From NCBI RefSeq assembly GCF_963921235.1, contig NC_086097.1, forward strand, positions 37,202,001-37,266,000: a DNA stretch of 64,000 nt. The letters run 5' to 3'. The notes beneath the pieces were generated by a model that did not search any database, was not told the DNA's origin, and saw nothing but the letters and a program-made list of their open reading frames with translations. The translations under genes were made by a program, and so were the position numbers. Source of the DNA: Mobula hypostoma. Lineage: Eukaryota. Within the stretch, counting starts at the first letter, position 1; every line of letters starts with the position of its first letter. Positions 14,111 to 58,960 of the stretch are shown here, piece after piece.

Positions 14111-17100
14111 CCATAGAACCATAGAAACTACAGCACAGAAACAGGCCCTTTGGCCCTTCTTGACTGTGCCGAACCATTTTCTGCCTAGTCCCACTGACCT
14201 GCACACGGACCATATCCCTCCATACACCTCCCATCCATGTATCTGTCCAATTTATTCTTAAATGTTAAAAAAGAACCCACATTTACCACCTCGTCTGGCA
14301 GCTCATTCCATACTCCCACCACTCTCTGTGTGAAGAAGCCCCCCGCTAATGTTCCCTTTAAACTTTTCCCCCCTCACCCTTAATCCATGTCCTCTGGTTT
14401 TTTTCTCCCCTTGCCTCAGTGGAAAAAGCCTGCTTGCATTCACTCTATCTATACCCATCATAATTTTATATACCTCTATCAAATCTCCCCTCATTCTTCT
14501 ACGCTCCAGGGAATAATGTCCTAACCTATTCAACCCTTCTCTGTAACTGAGTTTCTCAAGTCCCGGCAACATCCTTGTAAACCTTCTCTGCACTCTTTCA
14601 ACCTTATTTATATCCTTCCTGTAATTTGGTGACCAAAACTGAACACAATACTCCAGATTCGGCCTCACCAATGCCTTATACAACCTCATCATAACATTCC
14701 AGCTCTTATACTCAATACTTCAATTAATAAAGGCCAGTGTACCAAAAGCTCTCTTTACGACCCTATCTACCTGTGACGACACTTTTAGGGAATTTTGTAT
14801 CTGTATTCCCAGATCCCTCCGTTCCACTGCACTCCTCAGTGCCTTACCATTAACCCTGTATGTTCTACGTTGGTTTGTCCTTCCAACGTGCAATACCTCA
14901 CACTTGTCAGTATTAAACTCCATCTGCCATTTTTCAGCCCATTTTTCCAGATGGTCCAAGTCCCTCTGCAGGCTCTGAAAACCTTCACTGTCTACTACAC
15001 CTCCAATCTTTGTATCATCAGCAAACTTGCTGATCCAATTTACCACATTATCATCCAGATCATTGATATAGATGACAAATAACAATGGACCCAGCACTGA
15101 TCCCTGTGGCACACCACTAGTCACAGGTCTCCACTCAGAGAAGCAATTCTCTACCACCACTCTCTGGCTTCTTCCATCGAGCCAATGTCTAATCCAATTT
15201 ACCACCTCTCCATGTATACCTAGCGACTGAATTTTCCTAACTAACCTCCCATGCGGGACCTTGTCAAAGGCCTTACTGAAGTCCATGTAGACAATATCCA
15301 CTGCCTTCCCTTCATCCACTTTCCTGGTAACCTCCTCAAAAAACTCCAACAGATTGGTCAAACATGACCTACCACGCACAAAGCCATGTTGACTATCCCT
15401 AATAAGCCCCTGTCTATCCAAATGCTTGTAGATTCTGTCTCTTAGTACTCCCTCCAATAACTTACCTACTACTGACATTAAACTCACCGGCCTATAATTT
15501 CCCGGATTACTTTTCCATCCTTTTTTAAACAACGGAACAACATGAGCCACTCTCCAATCCTCCAGCACTTCACCCGTAGACAGCGACATTTTAAATATTT
15601 CTGCCCGGGGCCCCCACAATTTCAACACTAGTCTCCTTCAAGGTCTGAGGGAACACTCTGGCAGGTCCCGGGGATTTATCCACTTTAATTTTCCTCAAGA
15701 CAGCAAGCACCTCCTCCTTTTCAATCTGTACAGTTTCCATGGTCTCACTACTTGATTCCCTCAATTCCATAGATTTCATGCCAGCTTCCTTAGTAAATAC
15801 AGACGCAAAAAACCTATTTAAGATCTCCCCCATTTCCTTTGGTTCCGCACAAAGCCGACCATTCTGATCTTCAAGAGGACCAATTTTATCCCTTACAATC
15901 CTTTTGCTCTTAATATACTTGTAAAAGCTCTTTGGATTATCCTTCACTTTGACTGCCGAGGCAACCCCACGTCTTCTTTTAGCCCTCCTGATTTCTTTCT
16001 TAAGTATTTTCTTGCACTTCTTATACTCCTCAAGCACCTGATTTACCCCGTTTCCTATACATTTCATACAACTCCCTCTTCTTCTTTATCAGAGTTGCAA
16101 TATCCCTTGAGAACCAAGGTTCCTTATTCCTATTCAATTTGCCTTTAATCCTAACAGGAACATACAAACTCTGCACTCTCAAAATTTCCCCTTTGAAGGC
16201 TTCCCACCTACCAATCACATCTTTGCCAGAGAACAACCTGTCCCAATCCACGCTTTTTAGATCCTTTCTCATTTCTTCAAATTTGGCCTTCTTCCAGTTC
16301 AGAACCTCAACCCGAGGACCAGATCTATCCTTGTCCATGATCAAATTGAAACTAATGGTGTTATGATCACTGGAACCAAAGTGCTCCCCTGCACAGACTT
16401 CTGTCACTTGCCCTAATTCGTTTCCTAACAGGGGATCCAATATTGCATCCCCTCTAGTTGGTCCCTCTCTATATTGATTTAGAAAACTTTCCTGAACACA
16501 TTTTACAAACTCTAAACCATCTAGACCCCTAACAGTATGGGAGTCCCAATCAATGTATGGAAAATTAAAATCCCCTACCACCACAACTTTATGTTTCCTG
16601 TAGTTCCCTGCTATCTCTCTGCAGATTTGCTCTTCCAAGTCTCGTTGACTATTGAGTGGTCTGTAATACAATCCCACTAATGTGGCCATACCTTTCCTGT
16701 TTCTCAGCTCCACCCATAAGGACTCAGTAGACAAGCCCTCTAATCTGTCCTGCCTGAGCACTGCTGTAATATTTTCCCTAACAAGCAATGCTACTCCCCC
16801 ACCTTTCATTCCTCTGCCTCGATCACATCTGAAACATCGGAACCCTGGAATATTAAGCTGCCAGTCCTGCCCCTCCTGTAGCCAAGTTTCACTAATTGCT
16901 ACAACATCATAATTCCACGTGTCAATCCACGCCCTCAACTCATCTGCCCTCCCCGCAATACTCCTAGCATTGAAATACATACACCTCAGAAGATTTTTAC
17001 CACCACTCACAACCTTTCTATCAGCAGATTTGCTTAAACTTTCAACATCATTTATTTTCACCCCAGCCACACTGTCAGCTCTGGCACTCTGGTTCCCATC

Positions 17101-18395
17101 CCCCTGCAAATCTAGTTTAAAGCCTCCTCAATAGCACTAACAAACCTCCCTGAAAGGATATTGGTCCCCCTGTGGTTCAAGTGTAACCCATCTCTCTTGT
17201 ACAGGTCCCACCTGCCCCAGAAGAGGTCCCAATGATCCTGAAATCTGAAACCCTGCCCCCTACACCAGTTCCTCAGCCACTTGTTCCTCCTCCAGAGCAT
17301 CCTATTCCTACCCTCACTGGCACCTAGCACAGGTAGCAATCCTGAGATTACCACCCTCGAGGTCCTGCTTTTCAACTTCCTACCAAGCTCTCTATACTCA
17401 CTGTCCAGGACCTCTTCACTCTTCCTTGCTATGTCATTGGTACCGATGTGCACCACGACATCTGGCTGATCACCCTCCCACTTCAGAATGTCATGCAATC
17501 AATCATTGACATCCTTGACCCTGGCACCTGGGAGGCAACAAACCATCCTGGATTCTCTGTCACGACCACAGAACCTTCTATCTGCACCTCTAACTATCGA
17601 GTCCCCTATCACTACCACTCTCCTCTTTCTCCCCCCTCCCTTCTGCACTGCAGAGCCAGACTCAGTGCCAGAGATCCGGCTACTGCAGCTAGTCCCAGGT
17701 AAGTCATCCCCCGCAACAGTATCCAATGCGGTATACTTGTTGTTGAGGTGAATGGCCACAGGGGAACCCTGCTCTGCCTGCCCTTTCCTCTTCCCTCGCC
17801 TGACAGTGACCCAATTTCCTGTCCTCTGCTCCTTTGGCGTAACTACCTCCCTGTAGCTACGATCTATAATCTCCTCATTCTCCCGAATGATCCGCAGGTC
17901 ATCCAGCTCCTGCTCCAGTTCCCTAACACGGTTTGTCAGGAGCTGCAGCTGGATGCACTTCTTGCAGGTGTCGTTGTCAGGGACACCGGAGGGCTCCCTG
18001 ACTTCCCACATCCTGCAAGAGGAGCATTCCAACATCCTGCCTGGCATTCTCACTGCACTAAACAATCTGAACAAAAAACTTACCGGAACCTACCCTGGCC
18101 TCTGCCTACTCTCGCTGAAGCCTGTTGAGCCAAAGCCGTCCCACTCTGACGATGGCCGCTACAACGATGGCCGCTGTATATGGTGGTCTGCTTTTTAAAC
18201 CTTGGCGCGCTACGTCACGCGCCTGCGCAGTGCAGACCCTTCTCCCCGAGCAGTGTTTAAAAAAAAACGACTTTTTTCTACCCGATTTCTTCACTCCTTC
18301 TCAGCTACTTGCTTCGACTGAAACAAGAACCATTGAAAATTTCTCTTTTTAAACCTTGGCGCGCTACGTCACTCCTTCTCAGCTGCTTGCTTCGA
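14111..18395 (-). mobile_element. Near full-length CR1 LINE: 5' UTR, ORF1 (Zn finger, coiled coil, SGNH esterase), ORF2 (APE endonuclease + RT), (TTCTATGG)n tail
   Basis: ORFs 17499..18074 and 17112..17498 (CSSC..CKKC, VVVIGDSIVRG, HIGTND, DGLHLN); 16030..17109 (NARS, SETWL, GDFN, SDH); 15591..16067; 14720..15628 ([16 protein letters not shown]); 14303..14692. Few disabling mutations. Confidence 0.97.
17112..18046 (-). pseudogene. CR1 ORF1 interrupted by one in-frame TGA at 17499-17501
   Basis: The two ORF-track segments abut in the same frame. GAT TGA TTG is consistent with CGA>TGA CpG decay. Confidence 0.85.
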
Positions 18396-19999: not shown

Positions 20000-21095
20000 A
20001 AATAAGGCAGGGGTAAGTGGAACAACTATTGTGGGAATGGACAGAGTTAGAGTAGGGATTTTGAGGCTTTAGCTCTTCAAGGCTTCAGCGTGGAGAGGCT
20101 TCAGTCAGAGGAAGTGAAAAGCCATAGGTAGATTTTTTTTCCCCCATGGTTTTCCCTTCTTTATATTTACTCACTTAGAACAGTACAGAGGGCAGGCAGG
20201 ATAGCTAAATGCTCCTCTTGCAAGACATGGGAAGGCAGGGAGACCTCCAGTGTCCCTGACGACTATACCTACACAAAATGCATCCAGCTGCAGCTTCTAA
20301 CACTCAGGGGGCTGGCAGGGAGGGTGATAGATAGAACATATAGAGAGGTATTTACACCCGAGGTGTAGGACACAGGAGTCTGGCTGACAGTCGGGAAGGG
20401 GAAAGGTATTAAACAGCCAGTTCAGAATACTCTAGTGGCCATCCCCCCTCAACAACAGGTATACCACTTTGGATGATGTTGTGAGTGATAACCTAGCAGA
20501 GAAAAGTCACAGTGGTCAGGTCTCTGGCTCTGTGACTCAGAGAAAAGAAGGGAGAAGAGGCGAGCTGTGGCGATAGGGGATTCATTGGTTGGGGAACAGA
20601 AAGAAGGTTCTGTGGACAAGATTCCTGGACGGTATGCTGCCTCCCAAGTGCAGGGTCCAGGACAACTCGGATCAAGTCCTCAGCATTCTTCAGTGGAAGA
20701 GTGAACAGCCAGAGGTCATGGTCCATGTAGGTACCAATGACATAGGTAGGAATACTGACAAGGTTCTGCAAAGTGAGTTCAGGGATTTAGGTGCTAAGTT
20801 AAAGGGCAGGATCTCCTGGATTGTGATCTCAGGATTGCTACTCAAACTATGTGCTAGTGAGGCCAGAAATAAGAAGATCACACATAGGTAAGGAGCTGGT
20901 GTAGGAGGGAGGATGTCAGATTTTTCAATCATTGGGCTCTCTTCCAGGGAAGGTGGGACTGGACCAGTACAGAAGAGACAGTTTTCACCTGAAATGGAAG
21001 GGGACTAATATCCTAGCAGGAAGGTTTGCTGGTGCTGCACCGAGGTGGGGTGGGGAGTGGTTTAAACTAGAATTGCAGGAGGATGGGAACCAGAG
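20000..21095 (+). mobile_element. Decayed CR1 5' portion (5' UTR, ORF1, ORF1/ORF2 junction)
   Basis: ORFs 20589..20891 (QPEVMVHVGTNDIG) and 20932..21117 (HLKWKGTNILAGRF...FKLELQEDGNQ). Confidence 0.85.
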
Positions 21096-29547: not shown

Positions 29548-32500
29548 ATAAGACCATAAGACAAAGGAGCAGGTCAAAGAACACTGAGGCTGTCTACAAG
29601 AAAGGCCAGAGCCATCTCTATTTCCTGAGGAGACTGAGGTCCTTTAACATCAGCCGGACGATGCTGAGGATATTCTACGAGTCTGTGGTGGCCACTGCTA
29701 TCATGTTTGCTGTTGTGTGCTGGGGCAGCAGGCTGAGGGTGGCAGACACCAACAGAATCAACAAAGTCATTTGTAAGGCCAGTGATGTTGTGGGGATGGA
29801 ACTAGACTCTCTCACGGTGGTGTCTGAAAAGAGGATGCTGTCTAAGTTGCATGCCATCTTGGTCAATGTCTCCCATCCACTACATAATGTACTGGTTGGG
29901 CACAGGAGTACATTCAGCCAGAGACTCATCCCACCGAGATGCAGCACTGAGCGTCATAGAAAGTCATTCCTGCCTGTGGCTGTCAAACTTTACAACTCCT
30001 CCCTTAGAGGGTCAGACATCCTGAGCCAATAGGCTGGTCCTGGACTTATTTCATAATTTACTGGCATAATTTACATATTACTATTTAACTATTTATGGTT
30101 CTATTACTATTTATTATTTATGGAGCAACTGTAACGAAAACCAGTTTCCCCCAGGATTAATAAACTATGACTAAGTCGGCCATTCGGCCCATTGAGTCTG
30201 CTCCGCCATTTCATCATGAGCTGATCCATTCTCCCATTTAGTCCCACTCCCCCACCTTCTCACCATAACCTTTGATGCCCTGGCTACTCAGATACATATC
30301 GATCTCTGCCTTAAATACACTCAATGACTTGGCCTCCACTGCCTCCTGTGGCAACAAATTCCATAGATTCACCACCCTCTGGCTAAAAAAATTCCTTCGC
30401 ATTTCTGTTCTGAAAGGGCGCCCTTCAATCCTTAAGTCATGCCCTCTCGTACTAGACTCCCCCATCATGGGAAACAACTTTGCCACATCCACTCTGTCCA
30501 TGCCTTTCAACATTCGAAATGTTTCTATGAGGTCTCCCCTCATTCTTCTAAACTCCAAGGAATACAGTCCAAGAGCGGACAAACGTTCCTCATATGTTAA
30601 CCCTCTCATTCCTGGAATCATTCTAGTGAATTTTCTCTGTACCCTCTCCAACGTCAGCACATCCTTTCTTAAATAAGGAGACCAAAACTGCCCACAGTAC
30701 TCCAAGTGAGGTCTCACCAGCGCCTTACAGAGCCTCAACATCACATCCCTGCTCCTATACTCTATTCCTCTAGAAATGAATGCCAACATTGCATTCTCCT
30801 TCTTCACCACCGACTCAACCTGGAGGTTAACCTTAGGCTATCTTGTACGAGGACTCCCAAGTCCCGTTGCATCTCAGAACTTTGAATTCTTTCCCCATTT
30901 AAATAATAATCTGCCCGTTTATTTCTTCTGCCAAAGTGCATAACCATACACTTTCCAACATTGTATTTCATTTGACACTTCTTTGCCCATTCTTCCAATC
31001 TATCCAAGTCTCTCTGCAGACTCTCCGTTTCCTCAGCACCTATCTTCGTATCATCAGTAAACATAGCCACAAAGCCACTTATTCCATAATCCAAATCATT
31101 GATGTACAATGTAAAAAGAAGCGGCCCCAACACAGACCCCTGTGGAACACCACTGGTAACCGGCAGCCAACCAGATTAGGATCCCTTTATTCCCACTCTC
31201 TATTTCCTGCCAATCAGCCAACGCTCTATTCATGTATGTAACTTTCCCATAATTCCATGGGCTCTTATATTGTTAAGTAGCCTCATGTGTGGCACCTTGT
31301 CAAAGTCCTTCTGAAAATCCAAATATACAACATCCACTGCATCTCCCTTGTCTAGCCTACTTGTAATTTCCTCAAAAAATTGTAATAGGTTTGTCAGGCA
31401 GGATTTTCCTTTAAGGAATCCATGCTGAGTTCTGCCCATCTTATCATATGCCTCCAGGTACTCTGTCACCTCATCCTTGACAATCGACTCCAACAACTTC
31501 CCAACCACCGATGTCAAGCTAACAGATCTATAATTTCCTTTTTGCTTCCTTGCCCCCTTCTTAAATAGCGGAGTGACATTTGCAATCTTCCAGTCCTCCG
31601 GAACCATGCCAGAATCCATCGACTTTTGAAAGATCATCGCTAATGCCGCCGCAATCTCCACAGCTACTTCCTTCAGAACACGCAGGTGCATTCCATCTGG
31701 TCCGGGTGATTTATCTACCTTTAGCCTATTCAGCTTCCTGAGGACTTTCTCGGTCGTTATTGTGACTGCACACACTTCTCTTCCCTGCCACCCTTGAGTG
31801 TCTGGCATACTGCTGTCTTCCTCAGTGAAGACTGATGCAAAATACTTGTTCAGTTCCTCTGCCATCTCCTCATCTCCCATTACAATTTCTCCAGCATCAT
31901 TTTCTATCGGTCCTATATCTACTCTCACCTGTCTTTTACTCTTTATATACTTGAAAAAGCTTTCAGTATTCTCTTCGATATTATTTGCTAGCTTCCTTTC
32001 ATAGTTAATCTTTTCTCTCTTAATGACCTTCTTGGTTTCCTTTTGTAAGGTTTTAAAAACTTCCCAGTCCTCTCTCTTCCCACTAATTTTTGCTTCCTTG
32101 TATGCCCTCTCTTTTGCTTTAACTTTGGCTTTGACTTCTCTTGTCAACCACGGTTGCATCCTTTTTCCACTCGAAAATTTCTTCTTTTTTGAAATATACC
32201 TGTCTTGTACATTCCTCATTTCTCGCATAAACTCCAGCCACTGCTGCTCTGCTGTCTTTCCCGCCAGTGTCTCTTTCCAGTCAACTTTGGCCAGTTCCTC
32301 TCTCATGCCACTGTAATTTCCTTTACTCCACTGAAATACCGACACATCAGATTTCGGCTTCTCTTTTTCAAATTTCACAGTAAAATCAATCATGTTATGA
32401 TCACTGCCTCCTCATGGTTCCTTCACCTCAATCTCTCTAATCACCTCTGGTTCATTACACAATACCCAATCCAGTACAGCCGATCCTCTAGTGGGCTCAA

Positions 32501-37733: not shown

Positions 37734-40440
37734 CAACACACAGAGAATGCTGGAGGAACTCAGCAGTTCATGCAGCTTCAAAGGAAGAGTGAACAGTCGA
37801 CCTTTCAGGGCGGGACCCTTCTTCTGGACTGAGATGGAATGGGAAAGATGCCAGAATAAAAAGGTGGGGGGGGGAGGAAGAGATGCCAGAATAAAAAAGG
37901 TGGGGAAGGAGAAAGAGGCTAGCTGGTAGGAGCAGCCAGGTGGGTGGAAAAGGTCAAGGGCTGCAGCAGAAAGAATCTGAAAGCAGAGCATTGTGAACAA
38001 TGGGAGAAAGGTAAGGAGGAGGGGACCCAGTGAAATAGGCAGGTTAGGCAGGTGAGAACAAGTGAATGATCGGAGTGGGGAATAGGGGGGCAGGTGAGGG
38101 AAATTTATTCACCAGAAGGAGAAATCGATATTCATGCTATCAAGTTAGAGGCTACACAGACAGAATATAAGGTGTTACATAGAAAGATAGAAAATAGGTG
38201 CAGGAGTAGGCCATTCAGCCCTTCGTGCCTGCACCGCCATTCAGTATGATCGTGGCTGATCATCTAACTCAGAACCCTGTACCAGCCTTCCCTCCGTACC
38301 CCCTGATCCCTTTAGCCACAAGGGCCATATCTAACTCCCTCTTAAATATAGCCAATGAACTGGCCTCAACTGTTTCCTGTGGCAGAGAATTCCACAGATT
38401 CACCACTCTCTGTGTGAAGAAGTTTTTCCTAATCTCGGTCCTAAAAGGCTTCCCCTTTATCCTCGAGCTGTGACCCCTCGTTCTGGACTTCCCCAACATC
38501 GGGAACAATCTTCCTGCATCTAGCCTGTCCAATCCCTTTAGGATTTTATACGTTTCAATAAGATCCCCCCTCAATCTTCTAAATTCCAAAAAATATAAGC
38601 CTAGTCAATCCAGTCTTTCTTCATATGAAAGTCCTGCCATCCCAGGAATCAATCTGGTGAACCTTCTTTGTACTCCCTCTATGGCAAGGATGTCTTTCCT
38701 CAGATTAGGGGACCAAAACTGTACACAATACTCCAGGTGTGGTCTCACCAAGGCCTTGTACAACTGCAGTAGTACCTCCCTGCTCCTGTACTCGAATCCT
38801 CTTGCTATGAATGTCAGCATACCATTCGCCTTTTTCACCGCCTGCTGTACCTGCATGCCCACTTTCAATGACTGGTGTATAATGACACCCAGGTCTCGCT
38901 GCACCTCCCCTTTTCCTAATCGGCCACCATTCAAATAATAATCTGTTTTCCTGTTTTTGCCACCAAAGTGGATAACCTCACATTTATCCACATTAAATTG
39001 CATCTGCCATGAATTTGCCCACTCACCTAACCTATCCAAGTCACCCTGCATCCTCCTCACAGCTAATACTGCCGCCCAGCTTCCTGTCATCCGCAAACTT
39101 GGAGATGCTGCATTTAATTCCCTCATCTAAATCATTAATATATATTGTAAACAACCGGGGTCCCAGCACTGAGCCTTGCGGTACCCCACTAGTCACTGCC
39201 TGCCATTCTGAAAAGGTCCCGTATATTCCCACTCTTTGCTTCCTGTCTGCTAACCAATTCTCTATCCACATCAATACCTTACCCCCAATACCGTGTGCTT
39301 TAAGTTTGCACACTAATCTCCTGTGTGGGACCTTGTCAAAAGCCTTTTGAAAATCCAAATATACCACATCCACTGGTTCTCCCCATCCATTCTACTAGTT
39401 ACATCCTCAAAAAACTCTATGAGATTCGTCAGACATGATTTTCCTTTCACAAATCCATGCTGACTTTGTCCAATGATTTCACCGCTTTCCAAATGTGCTG
39501 TTATCATATCTTTGATAACTGACTCTAGCATTTTCCCCACCACTGATGTTAGGCTAACCGGTCTATAATTCCCTGGTTTCTCTCTCCCTCCTTTTTTAAA
39601 AAGTGGGTTACATTAGCCACCCTCCAATCCTCAGGACCTAGTCCAGAATCTAAAGAGTTTTGAAAAATTATCACTAATGCATCCACTATTTCTTGGGCTA
39701 CTTCCTTAAGCACTCTGGGATGCAGACCATCTGGCCCTGGGGATTTATCTGCCTTTAATCCCTTCAATTTACCTAACACCACTTCCCCTACTAACATGTA
39801 TTTCCCTCAGTTCCTCCATCTCACTGGACCCTCTGTCCCCTACTATTTCCAGAAGATTATTTATGTCCTCCTAGTGAAGACAGAACCAAAGTAGTTATTC
39901 AATTGGTCTGCCATGTTCTTGCTCCCCATAATCAAGTCACCTGTTTCTATCTGTAGGGGACCTACATTTGTCTTAACCAATCTTTTTCTTTTCACATATC
40001 TAACCAATCTTTTTCTTTTCACATGTTGCTCCTCATCCCTGAGGGTGGCGTCATCTTGGCACAAGAGGACGCAATGGATCAACACATCAGAATGAGAGTG
40101 GAAATCAGAATTAAAATGTCTGGCCACTAGAAAGTCCTGCTTGTGGCGGATGATGCGGAAGTGCTTGATGAAGTGAGCAATTTATGACGGATCTCACCAA
40201 TGTAGAGGAGGTCACATCAGATTCCTCCTTCTCCAGCCCTTTACCTTTCCCACCCACCTGACTTCACCTATTACCTTCTACCTCGTCGTCCTTCCCCTCT
40301 CCACACTTTTTTATTCTGGTATCTTCCCCCTTCTTTTCAACTCCTAAAGGAGAGTCTCGGCCCAAAATGTCGACTGTCTATTAATTTCCATAGATGTTAT
40401 CTGACCTGCTGAGTTCCTCCAGCATTTTGTGTGTGTTATT
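37734..40440. mobile_element. Penelope-like element in head-to-head inverted form (minus arm 37734-40220 interrupted by CR1; plus arm ~40217-40440)
   Basis: aatataaggtgtt (~38164-38176) resumes as gttgctcctc (~40025). At ~40217 the sequence switches to the reverse complement of ~37740-37980. Confidence 0.8.
38177..40024 (-). mobile_element. 5'-truncated CR1 LINE (RT) nested in the Penelope-like element
   Basis: ORFs 38269-39797 ([29 protein letters not shown]). 3' tail catagaaagatagaaaatag. Confidence 0.93.
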
Positions 40441-51670: not shown

Positions 51671-53514
51671 AAGTCAGGTGAAAATAAATCCGAAGGGTTT
51701 CTACAGTTATATTGACAGCAAAAGGATAGTGAGGGATAAACTTGGTCCCTAAGAGAATCAGAGTGGACGGCTATGTGCGGAGCCAAAAGAGATGGGGGAG
51801 ATTTTGAACAATTTCTTTTCTTCGGTATTCACTAAGGAGAAGGATATTGAATTGTGTAAGGTAAAGGAAACAAGAAGGGTAGTTATGGAAAGTATGACGA
51901 TTAAAGAAGAGGAAGTACTGGCGCTTTTAAGGAATATAAAAGTGGGTAAGTCTCCAGGTCCGGACAAGATATTCACTAGGACCTTGAGGGAAGTTAGTGT
52001 GGAAATAGCAGGGGCTCTGACAGTAATATTTCAAATGTCATTAGAAACGGGAATGGTGCTGGAGGATTGGCATACTACTCATGTGTTTCCATTGTCTAAA
52101 AAGGGTTCTAAGAGCAAACCTAGCAATTATCGGCCTGTGAGTTTGACGTCAGTGGTGGGTAAATTGATGGAAAGTATTCTTAGAGATGGTATATATAATT
52201 ATCTGGATAGACAGGGTCTGATTAGGAACAATCAACATGGATTTGTGCGTGGAAGGTCATGTTTGACAAATCTTACTGAATTTTTTGATGAGGTTACTAG
52301 GAAAGTTGATAAGGGTAAACCGGTGGCTGTTGTCTATATGGACTTCAGGAAGGCCTTTGACAAGGTTCCACACAGAAGGTTAGTTAGGAAGGTTCAATCA
52401 TTAGGCATTAATATCGAAGTAGTAAAATGGATTCAGCAGTGGCTGGATGGGAGACGCCAGAGAGTAGTGGTGGATAACAGTGTGTCAGATTGGAGAACGG
52501 TGTGTAGCGGTGTGCCTCAGGGATCTGTACTGGGTCCAATGTTGTTTGTAATATATATTAATGATCTGGATGATGGGGTGGTAAATTGGATTAGTAAGTA
52601 TGCAGATGATACTAAGATAGGTGGCGTTGTGGATAATGAAGTAGGTTTTCAAAGCTTACAGAGAGATTTAGGCCAGTTAGAAGAGTGGGCTGAAAGATGG
52701 CAGATGGAGTTTAATGCTGAAAAATGGGAGGTGCTACATTTTGGTAGGACTAATCAAAATAGGACATACATGGTAAATGGTAGGGCATTGAAGAATGTAG
52801 TAGAACAGAAGGATCTAGGAATAATGGTGCATGGTTCCCTGAAGGTGGAATTTCATGTGGATAGGGTGGTGAAGAAAGCTTTTGGTATGCTGGCCTTTAT
52901 TAATCAGAGCATTGAGTATAGGAGTTGGGATGTAATGTTGAAATTGTATTGGTGGGGCCAAATTTGGAGTATTGTGTACAGTTCTGGTCACCAAATTATA
53001 GGAAAGATGTCAGTAAAATTGAGGGAGTACAGAGGAGATTTACTAAAATGTTGCCTGGAATTCATCTCCTAAGTTACAGAGAAAGGTTGAACAAGTTAGG
53101 TCTTTAATCTTTGGAGCATAGAAGGTTGAGGGGGGACTTGATAGAGGTGTTTAAAATTATGAGGGGGATTGATGGAGTTGACGTGGATAGGCTTTTTTCC
53201 ATTGAGAGTGGGGGAGATTCAAACAAGAGGACATGAGTTGAGAGTTAAAGGGCAAAATTTTAGGGGTAACATGAGGGGGAGCATCTTTACTAAGAGAGTG
53301 GTAGCTGTGTGGAACGAGCTTCCAGCAGAAGTGGTTGAGGCAGGTTCAATGCTGTTGTTTAAAGTTAAATTGGATAGATATATGGATAGGAAAGGAATGG
53401 AGGGTTATGGGCTGAGTGCAGGTCGGTGGGACTAGGTGAGAGTAAGAGTTCGGCACGGACTAGAAGGGCCGAGATGGCCTGTTTCCATGCTGTAATTGTT
53501 ATATGGTTATATGG
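51671..53514 (+). mobile_element. Young 5'-truncated CR1 LINE (RT domain)
   Basis: ORF 51792..53072 (426 aa, YADD). (TTATATGG)2 tail. 5-bp TSD AAGGG at 51666-51670 and 53515-53519. Confidence 0.96.
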
Positions 53515-55399: not shown

Positions 55400-58300
55400 A
55401 TCAAGATCGAGCAAAGTGTCCATTGTGTTCTTCCATCCCAGCCTCACCGTGAAAAAGGTTCCAATGTACCTGTTTGGATACTGCTGAGGAAGGGAATAAT
55501 CCACCAGGGCACAGTGGCAGCAGCCAGGCTGGTCACACTGTGGCCGGTTCTGGCACTCAGCAGGGAAAGGTAAAGACAGGCAGTAGAGTAGTGATAGGAG
55601 ATTCGATAGTTAGGGGGAACAGACAGGAGGTTTTGTGGCCGCAAAAGAGACTCCAGGATGGTGTATAGCCTCACAGGTGCGAGGGTCCAATATGTATTAG
55701 AGCGGCTGCAGGATATTCTCCAGGGGAAGGGTGAACTGCCGGAGGTCGTAGTGCATATTGGCAGCAATAACACAGGCAAAAAAGGAGAAGAGATCCTACG
55801 CATCAAGTATACAGAGTTAGGAAAGTGACTGAAGAGAAGGCTCTCCAAGGTAATAATCTCCAGATTACTCTCTGTGCCATGGGCTAGGGCAGATAGGAAT
55901 GGCACAACAATATGGATGAATGAGTGGCTGAGGAGGTGGTCCAGCGAGCAAGGTTTCAAGGTTTTGGGCCATTGGAACCTTTTCTGGGGAAGGGGTGACC
56001 TGTACTAGAGGGACGGGTTGCACTTGAACTGGGGGGGAACCAGTATCCTGGCCAGGAGGTTTGCTACTGCTACTTGGGAGGGTTTAAACCAGTTTTGCAG
56101 GGGTCTGGGATCTGGTGCACCAGGTCAGTAAGTGAAGGATCAGATAGGAAGGTAGAAGTCAGGAAAGTATTGAAAGACAAAATTGAAAATACAGGCATGG
56201 TGTGTCAGACAGTTTGAAGTGTGTATTTTAATGCTAGGAATATTATGGGTAAATGTGATGAACTTAGAGCATAGATCTATGAACTTAGAGCATAGATCTA
56301 TGAACTATGATGTTGTGGCCATTTCAGAGACATGGTTGAGAGAGCAGCAGGAATGAGTGATTAAATACCAGGTTTTTGAAGTTTTAGAAAAGATAGTAAG
56401 AGAGGTAAAGGGAGGCAGGGAATTGCATGACTAATCAGGGACAATATCACAACTGTACCCAGGGGAAGCATAATTGTGAGGTCAGACACTGAGTCCATTT
56501 TGGATAGAACTCAAGAATAGGAAGGGTGCAATCATACTGATGGGATTGTACTACAAACCTGCTAATAGCCACTGGGACATTGACGAACAGATATGTGATC
56601 AGATTAAGGAAATGTCTAAAAATAATAGGGTTGTTATCATGGGGGATTTCAACTTCCCTAATATAAGCTGAGACTTTCTTGGTGCAAGAGGTTTAGAGGG
56701 GGCAGAGTTTGTTAAGTGTATCCAGGAGGTTTCTTAAATGAATATGTAGATGTCTAATGACAGGAGGGCTGTACTGGACCTGGTGCTGGGTAATGAGCTT
56801 GGCCAGGTGACCAACCTTTCAGTGGGTGAGCAGTTAGGGAACTGTGAGCACAATTCCTTAATTTTCAGGATAGCTATAGATAAGGATAGGCATGGTCCTT
56901 GTAGGAGAGTCCTAAAATTGGAACAGGGCAAATTATGAGGACATCAGGCAGGAGCAAAGAAGAGTTAATTGGGAACATCTTTTTTTCTGGCAAGTCCACA
57001 TCAGACATGTGGAGTGTGTTTAAACATCAACTGCGCAGAGTACAGGAAAGGCATGTCCCTGTTAGAAGGAAGGACAGGGATGGAAAGGTAAGAAAACCTT
57101 GGATGTCCAGAGAAGTGATTAAGTTAGTCAAGAAGAAAAAGGAAAAGTATGTAAAGCTTCAGAAGTTAAGATCAAACGAAGCACATGAGGAGTACAAAGA
57201 AGCCAGAAAAGAACTAAGGAAGGGAATTAGGAAAGTCAGGAGGGGCCATAGAAAGCCCTTGGCAAGTAGGATTAAGGTGAATCCCAAAGCATTCCAGGCA
57301 TACATCAAAAGCAAGAGGATAACTAGGGAGAGGGTGGGATTATTCTAGGATACGGAGAATGTGAGTGAGGTTACTTAATGAGTACTTTGCTTCCATATTT
57401 ACCAAAGAAAAAGATATGGAGGACCAGGAGATTAGTGCTGAGTATGTTTAGAAGTCAAGGAGGAGGAAGTATTGGGTCTCCGAATGAGTATTAAGATGGA
57501 TAAGTCTGATGGGATTTACCCCAGGTTATTGAGGGAGGCAGGGAGGAAACAAACAAGATTGCTGGGGCCTTGACCAGTATCTTCGTCTCCTCTCCAGCAC
57601 AAGTGAGGTCCCAGTGGACTGGTGAGTGGCTAATCTTGTACCTTTATTTAAGAAAGGAGCAAGGAAATTGCCGGAAAAAAATTCTTAGTGATAGGATATA
57701 TAAGCATTTGGAATTCCAGAGCCTAATTAGGGAGAGCCAGCATAGCTTTGTGCAGGACAAATCATGTCTTACCAACTTGATTGAGTTTTTTTGACAAGGT
57801 AGAGCAGTGGATATTGTCTATATGGTTTTTGGGTAAGTGGTTGACAAATTCCCTCATGAGAGGCTAATCCAGAAGATGAGGATACATGGGCTTCCCAAAC
57901 TGATGGTTTGAATTCAGAACTGGTTTGCACATAGAAGACAAAGGGTAGTGGTCGAAGGGATTTATTCAAGCTAGAGGGTTGGAATTAGGGTGTTTCACAG
58001 GGATCTATGCTGGGATCTCTGCAGTTTGTGATGTATATAAATGACCTGAATGAAAATGTAGAGGGTGGGTTAGTAGGTTTGCGGATGATACCAAGATTGG
58101 TGGAGTTGTGGATGGTGTAGAAGACTGGCAAAGAATACAGCACGATATAGATCAGTTGCAGATATGGGCTGAGAAATGGCAGATGGAGCTTAACCCAGAT
58201 AAATGTGAGGTGTTGCACTCATTGGGCAAATGCAAGGAGACAGTACACTGTTCAGGCAAGGTCCTTAACAGTGATGCTGAGCAGAGCAATCTTGGAATCC

Positions 58301-58960
58301 AACTTCATAGCTCCTCGAAAGTGGCTACACAGGTCGATAAGGTGGTTAAGAAGGCTTAAAGAATGCTTGTTTTTATCAGTGATATTGAGTTCAAAAGTCA
58401 ATAGGTTATGTTACAACTTGATAAAACTCTGGTTAGGCCAGAGTATTGCATACAGTTCTGGTCACCCCACTATAGAAAGGATGTTGAGGCTTTGGAGAGG
58501 GTGCAGAAGGGGTTTACCAGAATGCTGTTGGTTTAGGGGGCATGAGAGGCTGGACAAACTTTGGTTGCTTTCTTTGGAGCAGCAGAGGGTGAGGGCAGAT
58601 CTGACAGAGGTTTATAAGTTTATGAGAGGCATGGAGAGACTGGGAGTATATTTTTCCCAGGGTAGAAAAGTCTAATACCAGAGGGCAAGCTTTGAAGGTG
58701 AAAAAGGGTAGGTTCGAAGGGGATGTGAGTAGTAAGTTGTTTACTCAAGAACGGTGGATGTCTGGAATGCACTGACTGGTATGGTGATACAGGCCTTTGA
58801 TAGACATTTTGATAGGCACATGAATATGAGGAAGATGGAGGGATATGGACATTGTGAAGGCAGCAGACATTAATTTTTGGGTTTTTTTAATTACATTTTA
58901 GCTAGTTCGGCACAACATTGTGGGCTGAATGGCCTGTAACTGTGCTGTGCTGTTCTATAT
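55400..58960 (+). mobile_element. Decayed near full-length CR1 (ORF1 esterase, APE, RT, 3' UTR)
   Basis: RVVIGDSIVRG (55474..55668), LDLVLGNELGQV (56750..56938), KPWMSRE (56935..57348), QHSFVQDKSCLTNLIEFF, and CR1 3' end ggcctgtaactgtgctgtgctgttctat. Confidence 0.9.

Follow-up and report, generated by a model that had tools for sequence, protein, structure and literature searches.

A conserved U_UUA_AAC heptamer at the ORF1/ORF2 junction of vertebrate CR1 retrotransposons suggests −1 programmed frameshifting

Results

Anatomy of the ORF1/ORF2 junction

The window, which is the whole 64,000-nucleotide stretch of Mobula hypostoma DNA analysed here, carries a decayed CR1 copy on its minus strand (copy A, of family A) and two further copies on its plus strand. 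The features are as follows.

17112..18047, minus strand: ORF1 of copy A, with a zinc-knuckle-like CxxC N terminus followed by a GDSL/SGNH esterase (Pfam Lipase_GDSL_2)
17499-17501, minus strand: in-frame stop breaking ORF1 of copy A
17115..17121, minus strand: candidate slippery heptamer T_TTA_AAC, in ORF1 phase the last base of an Ala codon plus the Leu and Asn codons
17112..17114, minus strand: ORF1 stop TAG, immediately 3′ of the heptamer
17092..17104, minus strand: conserved G-rich block GGGGGATGGGAAC, beginning 10 nt past the heptamer
16030..17127, minus strand: start of ORF2 in the −1 frame, with a 47-codon linker from the heptamer and then the APE endonuclease
14303..16085, minus strand: remainder of ORF2 of copy A (linker, reverse transcriptase, and C-terminal part), which decay of the copy has divided by frameshifts into the ORFs 15591..16085, 14720..15637, and 14303..14719
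21061..21070, plus strand: heptamer and TAG of the second CR1 copy (family B), which retains its 5′ part and is 3′ truncated
56083..56092, plus strand: heptamer of the third CR1 copy (family C), whose stop is CAG in that copy only

Read on the minus strand, the junction of copy A is ATT GAG GAG GCT TTA AAC TAG ATT TGC AGG GGG ATG GGA ACC, which confirms the initial annotation in placing T_TTA_AAC at 17121-17115, in phase with ORF1 and followed at once by the stop. The last open stretch of this ORF1 covers 17112..17498 and ends in IEEALN. From the heptamer on, the APE/RT frame is −1 relative to ORF1, as had also been proposed; this frame is open over 17127..16030 into the APE domain and is translated as GGFKLDLQGDGNQ...LRCMYFNARS.... 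ORF1 without a break, 303-311 aa in length, was found in copies L005, L017, and L029. Pfam searches matched Lipase_GDSL_2 in the ORF1 of L017 (E=1.6e-13) and of the window copy (E=1.6e-11), and Exo_endo_phos (E=2.8e-17) and RVT_1 (E=1.2e-37) in ORF2, the Exo_endo_phos match beginning at frame residue 54 in copy L003. By its domain content the element is assigned to the CR1 clade of LINEs, with a zinc knuckle and SGNH esterase in ORF1 and APE and RT in ORF2, and its junction agrees with rows labelled LINE/CR1 in the available part of PMC13343379. The family-B copy is 67% identical to copy A over ORF1, and the family-C copy, at 56 kb, is 72% identical to it.

Features private to the window copy within family A

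The heptamer was unchanged in all 30 family-A copies. It had been claimed that the ORF2 frame has no AUG before a Met in the first APE strand (LRCMYFNARS) and that the 56.2-kb copy lacks this Met. The latter was right, the 56.2-kb copy having Val there; of the former, the absence of an AUG before or at the APE start held in families A and D, but the Met itself is Ile in the rest of family A. Of the 30 near-identical family-A copies, 20 have their first ORF2-frame ATG at codon 104 past the heptamer, a position 56 residues inside the Exo_endo_phos match; that ATG is codon 67 in two copies, codon 47 in the window copy, and codon 17 in one, and six copies have no ORF2-frame ATG ahead of a stop. 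A TGA closing the −1 frame two codons upstream of the heptamer occurred in 2 of the 29 family-A copies listed, the remaining ones having GGG or GGA at this position, so that their −1 frame opens 5 codons upstream. Both this TGA and the LRCMYFNARS Met are peculiar to the decayed window copy.

Invariance of the heptamer in seven CR1 families

Representative copies of seven CR1 families of the genome (A-G), with ORF1 protein identity down to about 40%, all have T_TTA_AAC in phase, a stop directly behind it, and ORF2 in the −1 frame. The stop is TAG in families A-D (four) and TAA in E-G (three). The codon preceding Leu reads GCT, GGT, AGT, ACT, GCT, GGT, and GAT across the seven, so that the residue is A, G, S, T, or D while the third base is T throughout; Leu is TTA and Asn is AAC in every family. 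The conservation at synonymous sites that the initial annotation had called for was thus observed, all seven positions being invariant, three synonymous or free sites included. In family-A ORFs, 13 of the 78 Leu codons are TTA and 14 of the 36 Asn codons are AAC, and the joint chance of the heptamer's synonymous identities is ~4e-12 if the seven families are independent and ~7e-6 if three lineages are. Third positions are much less conserved over the 11 codons upstream (majority counts of 3-6 of 7). Synonymous variation that breaks the heptamer, named beforehand as evidence against frameshifting, was not found in the seven families, and the heptamer recurs at junctions of 12 other vertebrate species. 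The −1 frame opens just 2-5 codons ahead of the heptamer in families A, D, E, and F.

Copies beyond the representatives were also compared. Among old family-B copies, 16 of 30 have the exact heptamer and stop, the variants being dispersed single changes, and the G-rich tract ahead of the heptamer varies from 8 to 29 nt, which makes the phase unreadable there. In 20 other family-C copies, AGT TTA AAC TAG was the most frequent state. All 127 scored ORF1 matches of family D were stop-free at 98-100% identity, and in neither retrieved copy of this family do the 88-89 codons reaching into the start of APE contain a Met. A repeat protein search of the same genome (query P0057) returned family D again and one weaker row with stops. 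Families A and D are the two youngest and most abundant, and in both no ORF2-frame AUG precedes or coincides with the endonuclease start. Met codons are present in the linkers of families F and G, and family G has C-UAA-UG with the AUG in the ORF2 frame. An ORF2 AUG upstream of APE, whose conservation had likewise been named beforehand as evidence against frameshifting, is present in some families but is not conserved, being absent from A and D. The linkers of D and G differ by two indels of 54 and 27 nt, both frame preserving; because their differences over 71 codons show no third-position excess (8, 8, and 10 differences), they fail to show protein-level constraint on the linker.

Three proteins from other rays (P0001, P0009, and P0021) end in GGLN, and in a by-eye comparison their Gly-rich tails look like that of family B. 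Overlaying contigs of four other coded organisms on 16800-17400 gave 170 differences; of the 40 best supported of these, none falls inside 17078-17121, and the flanks differ at 17074, 17077, 17122, and 17128. The four overlaid contig sets, whose status as RNA is a guess, listed no recurrent joint and no heptamer indel.

Recurrence at the junctions of other vertebrates

ORF1 homologues with a complete C terminus numbered 87 and came from rays, sharks, a chimaera, coelacanth, frogs, turtles, lizards, and a snake; in 75 of them the last two residues are LN. Only 2 of 79 proteins have, just ahead of LN, a residue without a possible NNU codon (E, K, Q, M, or W), compared with 43/79 and 35/79 at the two positions preceding it. 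In the stingray proteins P0122 and P0123, the linker contains Met codons. Two annotated proteins need care in reading: P0121 begins at a TTG codon that a prokaryote-style gene call read as Met, and P0030 is an annotated fusion model, which is not proof of a natural product.

At the nucleotide level, we used the CR1-group consensus sequences of PMC13343379 (Suppl. Table 2), of which the first 400 letters each were available. TTTAAAC plus a stop occurs 23 times in these stretches, and 18 of the occurrences, as read by eye, are ORF1/ORF2 junctions from 12 species: alligator, crocodile, bearded dragon, bullfrog, coelacanth, bowfin, halosaur (a Crack element), elephant shark, catshark, dogfish, sawfish, and stingray. 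Each of the three stop codons is represented in these junction rows, TGA by a lizard consensus, and most rows have G runs behind the stop; in several rows uncertain bases make the phase unreadable. When rows were selected through the esterase block, blind to the motif, the cassette was found in five of five CR1 rows. The catshark and dogfish rows have C-UAA-UG with an ORF2-frame AUG. The alternative heptamers GGGAAAC and AAAAAAC followed by a stop occurred within these 400-letter stretches in unrelated contexts only.

Other collections returned no CR1 junction. Metagenome contigs searched with the ORF1 alignment yielded 11 loci that were distant, at 23-39% identity, and lacked a CR1 junction; the same ORF1 search found only six bacterial SGNH hydrolases in a genome-contig collection and no match in a viral-contig collection. 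The ORF2 N-terminal region had six matches in the protein collection, none informative about the junction.

The G-rich block is conserved as sequence and not as fold

The adjacent stop and the G-rich segment, put forward at the outset as possible stimulators, are both conserved and may act as such. Six families (A, C, D, E, F, and G) share the G-rich block GGGGGNTGGG ~10 nt downstream of the heptamer, and the copy that represents family B departs from it by one change. UGGGA, 17 nt downstream of the stop, is present within the block in six of the seven families, and family E has UGGGU. Upstream of the stop, UGGGA is not conserved across the seven representatives and was seen only in other family-C copies.

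Folding of the downstream segment, which the initial annotation had suggested, predicted no stable structure: for the 90 nt downstream in seven natural copies, the Z-scores were 0.31, −1.28, 0.06, 0.38, −0.58, 1.83, and −0.38, and this stretch is nearly unfolded in family E (−2.9 kcal/mol). No conserved hairpin was predicted downstream of the heptamer, and the G block lies outside any significant fold in a model that leaves out pseudoknots. An Rfam search of the junction gave no match, and on the strand of the element, in the window copy, no long-range pairing partner for the G block was found. A two-layer G-quadruplex was predicted in D, F, and G only and was discarded as a general explanation. 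Two look-alike matches were rejected as ORF1/ORF2 junctions, one lying in RT coding sequence and the other being G rich and without a heptamer. In the available rows of PMC13343379, the codon phase of the G block varies among vertebrates, as judged by eye, and GGTTTAAACTA(G/A) also stands in the 5′UTR of two dogfish consensus rows. The G block is thus conserved as sequence, not as fold; its role could be that of a protein roadblock, of G-quartets, or of pairing with rRNA.

Discussion

Comparison of the junctions supports the frameshift interpretation of the initial annotation, and we consider a −1 programmed frameshift, aided by the adjacent stop and giving an ORF1-ORF2 fusion at a low rate, the best reading of the junction and probably the correct one. 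Most ribosomes would end at the ORF1 stop and release an ORF1p with the C terminus ...LN, and a minority would slip −1 on U_UUA_AAC. Slippage could occur with tRNA-Leu in the P site and tRNA-Asn in the A site or, as a "shifty stop," one step later, when both tRNAs have moved on to the E and P sites and the slowly decoded stop waits in the A site. After either slip, CUA would be read next, followed by the short linker, the endonuclease, and the reverse transcriptase, and an ORF1-ORF2 fusion would result at a low rate, in gag-pol fashion. U_UUA_AAC is among the heptamers most prone to shift on mammalian ribosomes (PMC5009743, excerpt). Of the hallmarks of canonical −1 frameshifting, the phase of the heptamer, a −1 ORF open across it, and conservation at synonymous sites were all found. 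A stable stem-loop or pseudoknot 5-9 nt downstream was not, a linear G block standing there instead; the classical 3′ stimulator is thus lacking, because no stable downstream structure was predicted in seven copies. Also speaking against this reading are the Met codons in the linkers of families F and G and of stingray P0122 and P0123, and the linker comparison of D with G, which gave no sign of protein-level constraint.

A wider generalization is tentative, and we regard it as possible yet somewhat doubtful: every esterase-bearing CR1 LINE of jawed vertebrates may make its APE/RT as a transframe fusion through a structure-independent, shifty-stop −1 frameshift on U_UUA_AAC, with any stop and with a linear G element acting via a bound protein, G-quartets, or rRNA pairing, the signal predating the split of cartilaginous and bony vertebrates. 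We found no published description of a CR1 frameshift junction, and an older one may exist.

The strongest alternative, which we consider unlikely, is termination-dependent reinitiation, in which the 40S subunit would be held by the G block, through rRNA pairing or a bound factor, after the ORF1 stop and would restart a few codons on in the −1 frame, at an AUG where available and otherwise at a near-cognate codon (UUG or AUU), yielding a separate ORF2p as in SART1. Coupling in SART1 relies on UAAUG together with an element further downstream, and restarts at codons other than AUG are known (PMC10275272, excerpt). Such a mechanism needs a stop of fixed position and free identity, as is observed here, and it would make use of the C-UAA-UG of family G and of the catshark and dogfish rows and of the UUG, AUU, or AUG that lies 2-4 codons past the heptamer in six of seven families. 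However, near-cognates make up 9 of 64 codons, so that chance alone should place one within a few codons; no stop-start overlap occurs in families A-F, a restart AUG near the stop being found in G alone of the seven. The UGGGA in the G block of six families equals the core of TURBS motif 1, which pairs with helix 26 of 18S rRNA (PMC5972666, excerpt), but that motif precedes the stop-restart site and lies close to the mRNA exit, according to the same excerpt, whereas UGGGA here is downstream and is not conserved upstream, family E has UGGGU, and no downstream structure was predicted. Reinitiation does not account for the fixation of all seven bases ahead of the stop, synonymous and free positions included.

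It is still less probable that the heptamer is kept for a reason other than ORF2 translation, for example a required ORF1p C terminus combined with an RNA or DNA signal (a TATA-like TTTAAA, or a packaging or dimerisation site with the G runs), ORF2 being reached by AUG-independent internal entry as proposed for human L1. Unconventional, AUG-independent initiation is indeed favoured for L1 (PMC5009743, excerpt); the G block is conserved as sequence rather than fold, and both its differing codon phase among the published rows and the presence of GGTTTAAACTA(G/A) in the two dogfish 5′UTRs would be expected of, or agree with, an RNA signal. Nevertheless, a protein-level need for -LN fixes neither the Leu and Asn codons nor the third base ahead of them, a transcript beginning ~30 nt past a TATA-like box would still have no AUG before APE in A and D, and the phase of the heptamer to ORF1 and the constant −1 position of ORF2 would be coincidences. 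That a slippery-looking string merely happens to end ORF1 of the window copy is extremely improbable: the 13-mer with ≤2 mismatches has 3 matches in the window against 2.3 expected, and what excludes chance is not this bare frequency but the conservation in seven of seven families, 75 of 87 protein C termini, and 18 junctions of other species.

The proposed mechanism can be set beside known systems. Heptamers of the X_XXY_YYZ type direct −1 frameshifting in retroviruses, LTR retrotransposons, and coronaviruses, U_UUA_AAC being the coronavirus/IBV site. The CR1 junction resembles the gag-pol type in its heptamer, its phase, and the downstream enzyme ORF in the −1 frame, and the expected outcome would be alike, with much structural or accessory protein and little polymerase fusion. 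Unlike that type, it has no predicted hairpin or pseudoknot, its 0-frame stop invariably abuts the heptamer, the element downstream of it is linear and G rich, and its host is a non-LTR LINE. Luteovirus and dianthovirus shift sites likewise have a nearby 0-frame stop. In pea enation mosaic virus RNA2, such a stop is needed whatever its identity (PMC5009743, excerpt). There the stop is 0-3 nt from the shift site, and CR1 similarly uses TAG, TAA, and TGA at one position; pea enation mosaic virus RNA2 and its kin, however, have a structured element with long-distance pairing, whereas no partner for the CR1 G block was found in the window copy. No protein is known to bind this block. In PRRSV nsp2TF frameshifting, a protein binds a linear C-rich motif located 11 nt 3′ of the shift site (PMC5009743, excerpt), and CR1 has a similarly unstructured, sequence-conserved motif ~10-11 nt downstream, which is G rich instead of C rich and might act as a protein roadblock.

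With the UAAUG coupling of SART1, a silkworm LINE, and the TURBS of caliciviruses and influenza B virus, CR1 has in common two ORFs on one retroelement RNA, the second of them in the −1 frame, an essential stop, a UGGGA-containing motif, and, in family G and some shark lineages, UAAUG. Most CR1 families, in contrast, have no AUG at the stop, the CR1 UGGGA is downstream and not upstream, and a conserved heptamer plays no part in that mechanism. Frameshifting has also been proposed for the out-of-frame ORFs of Dictyostelium TRE5-A and of R1Bm. The gag of HeT-A, a non-LTR element, is said to require a frameshift (PMC5009743, excerpt). These are LINE-class elements with out-of-frame ORFs like CR1, but in the excerpts available none was found with a canonical heptamer conserved over a vertebrate-wide clade.

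How ORF2 is translated from a bicistronic LINE RNA is a long-standing question. LINE ORF2 is generally thought to be made separately. The process is described as unclear for non-LTR elements generally (PMC3708506), and for L1 it is called unknown and AUG independent (PMC5009743, excerpt). The fixed CR1 heptamer offers a concrete hypothesis that can be tested with reporters. If the frameshift reading is true, CR1 would follow a retrovirus-like gag-pol logic, its ORF2p would bear the ORF1 esterase at the N terminus, and annotation pipelines should treat ORF1 and ORF2 as joined through slippage and no longer report ORF2 as start-less or truncated; the conserved stop plus G-run element would then be a new kind of stimulator in eukaryotic recoding. 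Should the clade-wide shifty-stop reading also hold, CR1 would be the first case of LINEs with a canonical programmed frameshift shared by a whole clade, and would offer a natural case of a G-run-dependent stimulator.

The ORF1/ORF2 junction in the window

The following CR1 features were located in the window, which is dense in CR1 copies from several families.

Features of the CR1 copies
~14.3-18.05 kb, minus strand: copy A, a decayed CR1-type LINE
17499-17501, minus strand: premature ORF1 stop of copy A
17127 to 16030, minus strand: open -1 frame
17121-17115, minus strand: heptamer T_TTA_AAC, in ORF1 phase
17114-17112, minus strand: ORF1 stop TAG, touching the heptamer
21061-21070, plus strand: copy B junction, 67% identical to copy A
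56083-56092, plus strand: copy C junction, 72% identical to copy A, stop mutated to CAG
30430-31396 (-), 38654-39632 (-), 51687-53514 (+) and 57684-58527 (+): further pieces of CR1 reverse transcriptase, with 64-75% identity to copy A

ORF1 of copy A carries a CxxC knuckle region followed by a GDSL/SGNH esterase (Pfam Lipase_GDSL_2), and its 3′ end reads ...ATT GAG GAG GCT TTA AAC TAG. Since the frame closes as GCT TTA AAC TAG, the heptamer lies in ORF1 phase. The -1 frame runs through a 47-codon linker into the APE endonuclease and then the reverse transcriptase (Pfam RVT_1, E=1.2e-37), the latter spread over frames broken by later frameshifts. Thus, the in-phase T_TTA_AAC with adjacent stop and the -1 position of ORF2, both claimed in the initial annotation, were borne out by the sequence of copy A.

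The junction in seven CR1 families

Relatives of the copies were searched in the genome (3.48 Gb, 200 contigs). Seven families (A-G) were compared, comprising relatives of copies A, B, and C and families found with two ORF1 homologue proteins, P0061 (nearest family E) and P0007 (family D), which are 40% and 64% identical to family A ORF1, respectively. When representative natural copies were aligned on the heptamer, all seven of its bases were identical in 7/7 families, the stop adjoined it in every family (TAG in A-D, TAA in E-G), and ORF2 always lay in the -1 frame. The codon preceding the heptamer's Leu was GCT, GGT, AGT, ACT, GCT, GGT, and GAT, thus specifying five different residues with an invariant third-base T. 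Using family A's own codon usage as baseline (TTA, 13/78 Leu; AAC, 14/36 Asn), the probability that all of these synonymous choices coincide was ~4e-12 for seven independent families and ~7e-6 when only three lineages were counted as independent. The synonymous sites of the heptamer, whose conservation the initial annotation proposed to examine, were thus invariant in all seven families. Exact heptamer plus stop was retained in 16/30 copies of family B, 10/21 of C, 6/8 of E, and 7/8 of F, and the old families showed scattered private changes, as expected of dead copies. Separately, family B ORF1 has at its 3′ end (window 20193-21095, plus strand; loci L031-L060) a G-rich tract of GGGGT-like units, 8 to 29 nt long depending on the copy, which encodes a Gly/Trp-rich tail as in the homologues P0001 and P0021.

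ORF2 start codons

Family A had at least 2769 first-look candidates in the genome, and all 40 that were scored were 99-100% identical over 401 nt. TTTAAACTAG was present at the same offset in 30/30 fetched copies. The -1-frame TGA two codons upstream of the heptamer in the window was found in 2 of the 29 copies with the junction printed, and in the remainder the -1 frame is open from five codons upstream of the heptamer onward. The Met in LRCMYFNARS, taken by the initial annotation as the first ORF2 Met, is present in the window copy but private to it, being Ile in the other copies read. The first ORF2-frame ATG was codon 104 after the heptamer in 20/30 copies; otherwise none occurred before a stop (6/30), or it was codon 67 (2/30), 47, or 17 (one each). 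Exo_endo_phos (Pfam) begins at residue 54 of the ORF2 frame, which matches position 2 of the 225-position profile. Initiation at an AUG at residue 110 would therefore cost the nuclease roughly its first quarter, and with it the YFNARS and SETW segments, where L1-type endonucleases have their essential Asn and Glu.

Family D is very young and looks like a CR1 family that is active now or was so until very recently: in this genome (G000), 127/127 scored ORF1 matches were 98-100% identical and stop-free, and most share the same 341-codon open frame. In both copies fetched, the 88 to 89 codons that lead from the heptamer to just inside the APE domain contain no ORF2-frame Met. Linker Met codons are present in families F and G, and family G reads C-UAA-UG right after the heptamer, placing an AUG in the ORF2 frame (loci L103:80-110 and L104). 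The same C-TAA-TG overlap occurs in catshark and dogfish rows of PMC13343379 Supplementary Table 2. As this is a stop-start arrangement of the SART1 type, some lineages may use both mechanisms or have changed from one to the other.

The junction in other vertebrates

In 87 of the 120 listed ORF1 homologues, the last esterase block fell inside the C-terminal 40 residues; 75 of the 87, from rays, sharks, a chimaera, coelacanth, frogs, turtles, lizards, and a snake, ended in -LN. The residue preceding LN was highly variable, and was one that NNU cannot encode (E, K, Q, M, W) in 2/79; at the two positions just before it, such residues amounted to 43/79 and 35/79. For four homologues (P0014, P0028, P0071, and P0072), the annotations read Pseudomonas aeruginosa SGNH hydrolase, ribosomal protein S24 isoform, and TMEM204 isoforms; contaminating sequence and gene models that have absorbed a CR1 ORF1 are the likely causes.

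In the first 400 letters of each CR1-group consensus (PMC13343379 Supplementary Table 2), TTTAAAC plus stop occurred 23 times (TAG 12, TAA 8, TGA 3); we read 18 of these, spread over 12 species as far apart as alligator and elephant shark, as ORF1/ORF2 junctions, and 5 lay in unrelated contexts or 5′UTRs. G runs followed within a few bases of the stop in most of the 18. The cassette of heptamer, stop, and G runs was also found in 5/5 CR1 rows picked by esterase block alone, without demanding the motif. Read by eye, the phase in five rows (alligator, lizard, dogfish, catshark, and stingray) gave ...LN plus stop; in several others it is obscured by uncertain bases. In the teleost L2 row LamInc_L2-14, the esterase ORF1 ends without the heptamer, so the cassette may be specific to CR1 (perhaps with Crack) rather than common to all esterase-bearing LINEs. 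When contigs of four other organisms were aligned on window 16800-17400, 17078-17121 was free of differences among the best-supported 40 of 170, the nearest being at 17074, 17077, 17122, and 17128.

Two side observations were made. GGTTTAAACTA(G/A) also occurs in the 5′UTR, upstream of the ORF1 ATG, of dogfish SquAca_CR1-3 and SquAca_CR1-18 (PMC13343379). In a distant metagenome LINE (L082:3-1742), one TGA closes the esterase ORF1 and an APE-bearing ORF2 follows immediately in the same frame, a candidate for stop-codon readthrough or for a host reading TGA as sense.

The downstream region

GGGGGNTGGG starts 9-10 nt past the heptamer in six families, with one change within it in the family-B copy used. 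Folding of the downstream segment, a check proposed in the initial annotation, predicted no stable structure: the 90 nt after the heptamer folded no better than shuffles in seven natural copies (z -1.28 to +1.83), and the family E stretch was predicted to be essentially unstructured. An Rfam search gave no match, the G block (the conserved G-rich stretch after the stop) had no complementary sequence anywhere else along the element's own strand in the window copy, and a two-layer G-quadruplex was predicted in only D, F, and G of the seven families. Because the codon phase of the G block relative to the ORF2 frame varies among vertebrate rows (by eye) and its Gly codons are nearly always GGG within this genome, its sequence suggests an RNA-level signal rather than a Gly-x-Gly peptide.

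Differences between the D and G linkers were not concentrated at third positions (8, 8, and 10 across 71 codons for the three positions), and two indels of 54 and 27 nt both preserve the reading frame. The former is an insertion in family D (loci L110 and L111) holding a second G block copy (GGGATGGGAACC) ~60 nt after the heptamer; the latter is an insertion in family G.

Discussion

ORF1 is probably joined to ORF2 by -1 programmed ribosomal frameshifting at U_UUA_AAC. This is the simplest account, because the heptamer is in phase and kept base for base, ORF2 is always -1, and the youngest families lack a usable AUG. According to a 2016 recoding review (PMC5009743), U_UUA_AAC is among the heptamers most prone to shift on mammalian ribosomes, and pea enation mosaic virus RNA2 requires a nearby stop of irrelevant identity. 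The CR1 stop is likewise fixed in position and free in identity, and we therefore propose that it helps slippage. The tRNAs on UUA and AAC would slip while the A site awaits release factor. ORF1p ends ...LN, and with CUA as the post-slip codon, the ORF2-frame part of family A would begin LDLQGDGNQ. LINEs need very little ORF2p, which a low frameshift rate would fit. For the linear G block, PRRSV may offer a precedent of structure-free stimulation, in which a protein binds a linear motif 11 nt downstream of the shift site (PMC5009743). Natural G-quadruplex stimulators were anticipated in that review, with none known.

Termination-reinitiation at the ORF1 stop is the main alternative, though a less probable one. 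The invariant stop position, UGGGA within the G block, UAAUG in family G, and the SART1 precedent all accord with it, but it leaves the conserved heptamer without explanation, and the rRNA-pairing motif lies downstream of the stop here, whereas the geometry described in PMC5972666 has it upstream. Less probable still are other explanations, such as a heptamer function unrelated to translation, under which the phase and constant -1 relation become coincidences. Chance occurrence of the heptamer is very improbable.

Full-text searches turned up no account of a CR1 frameshift site, and an older mention may exist. In the portions available, the 2016 review names HeT-A as sole non-LTR element and calls L1 ORF2 initiation unknown (PMC5009743), and the mechanism is described as unclear by Odon et al. 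(2013; PMC3708506). The words "frameshift", "overlap", "stop codon", and "translation" are absent from the 2026 CR1-group survey (PMC13343379). The accessories of the putative frameshift signal are unusual: the stop abuts the heptamer, and the G block is linear. The kind of signal is already known; what is new is its host family, which is very large.
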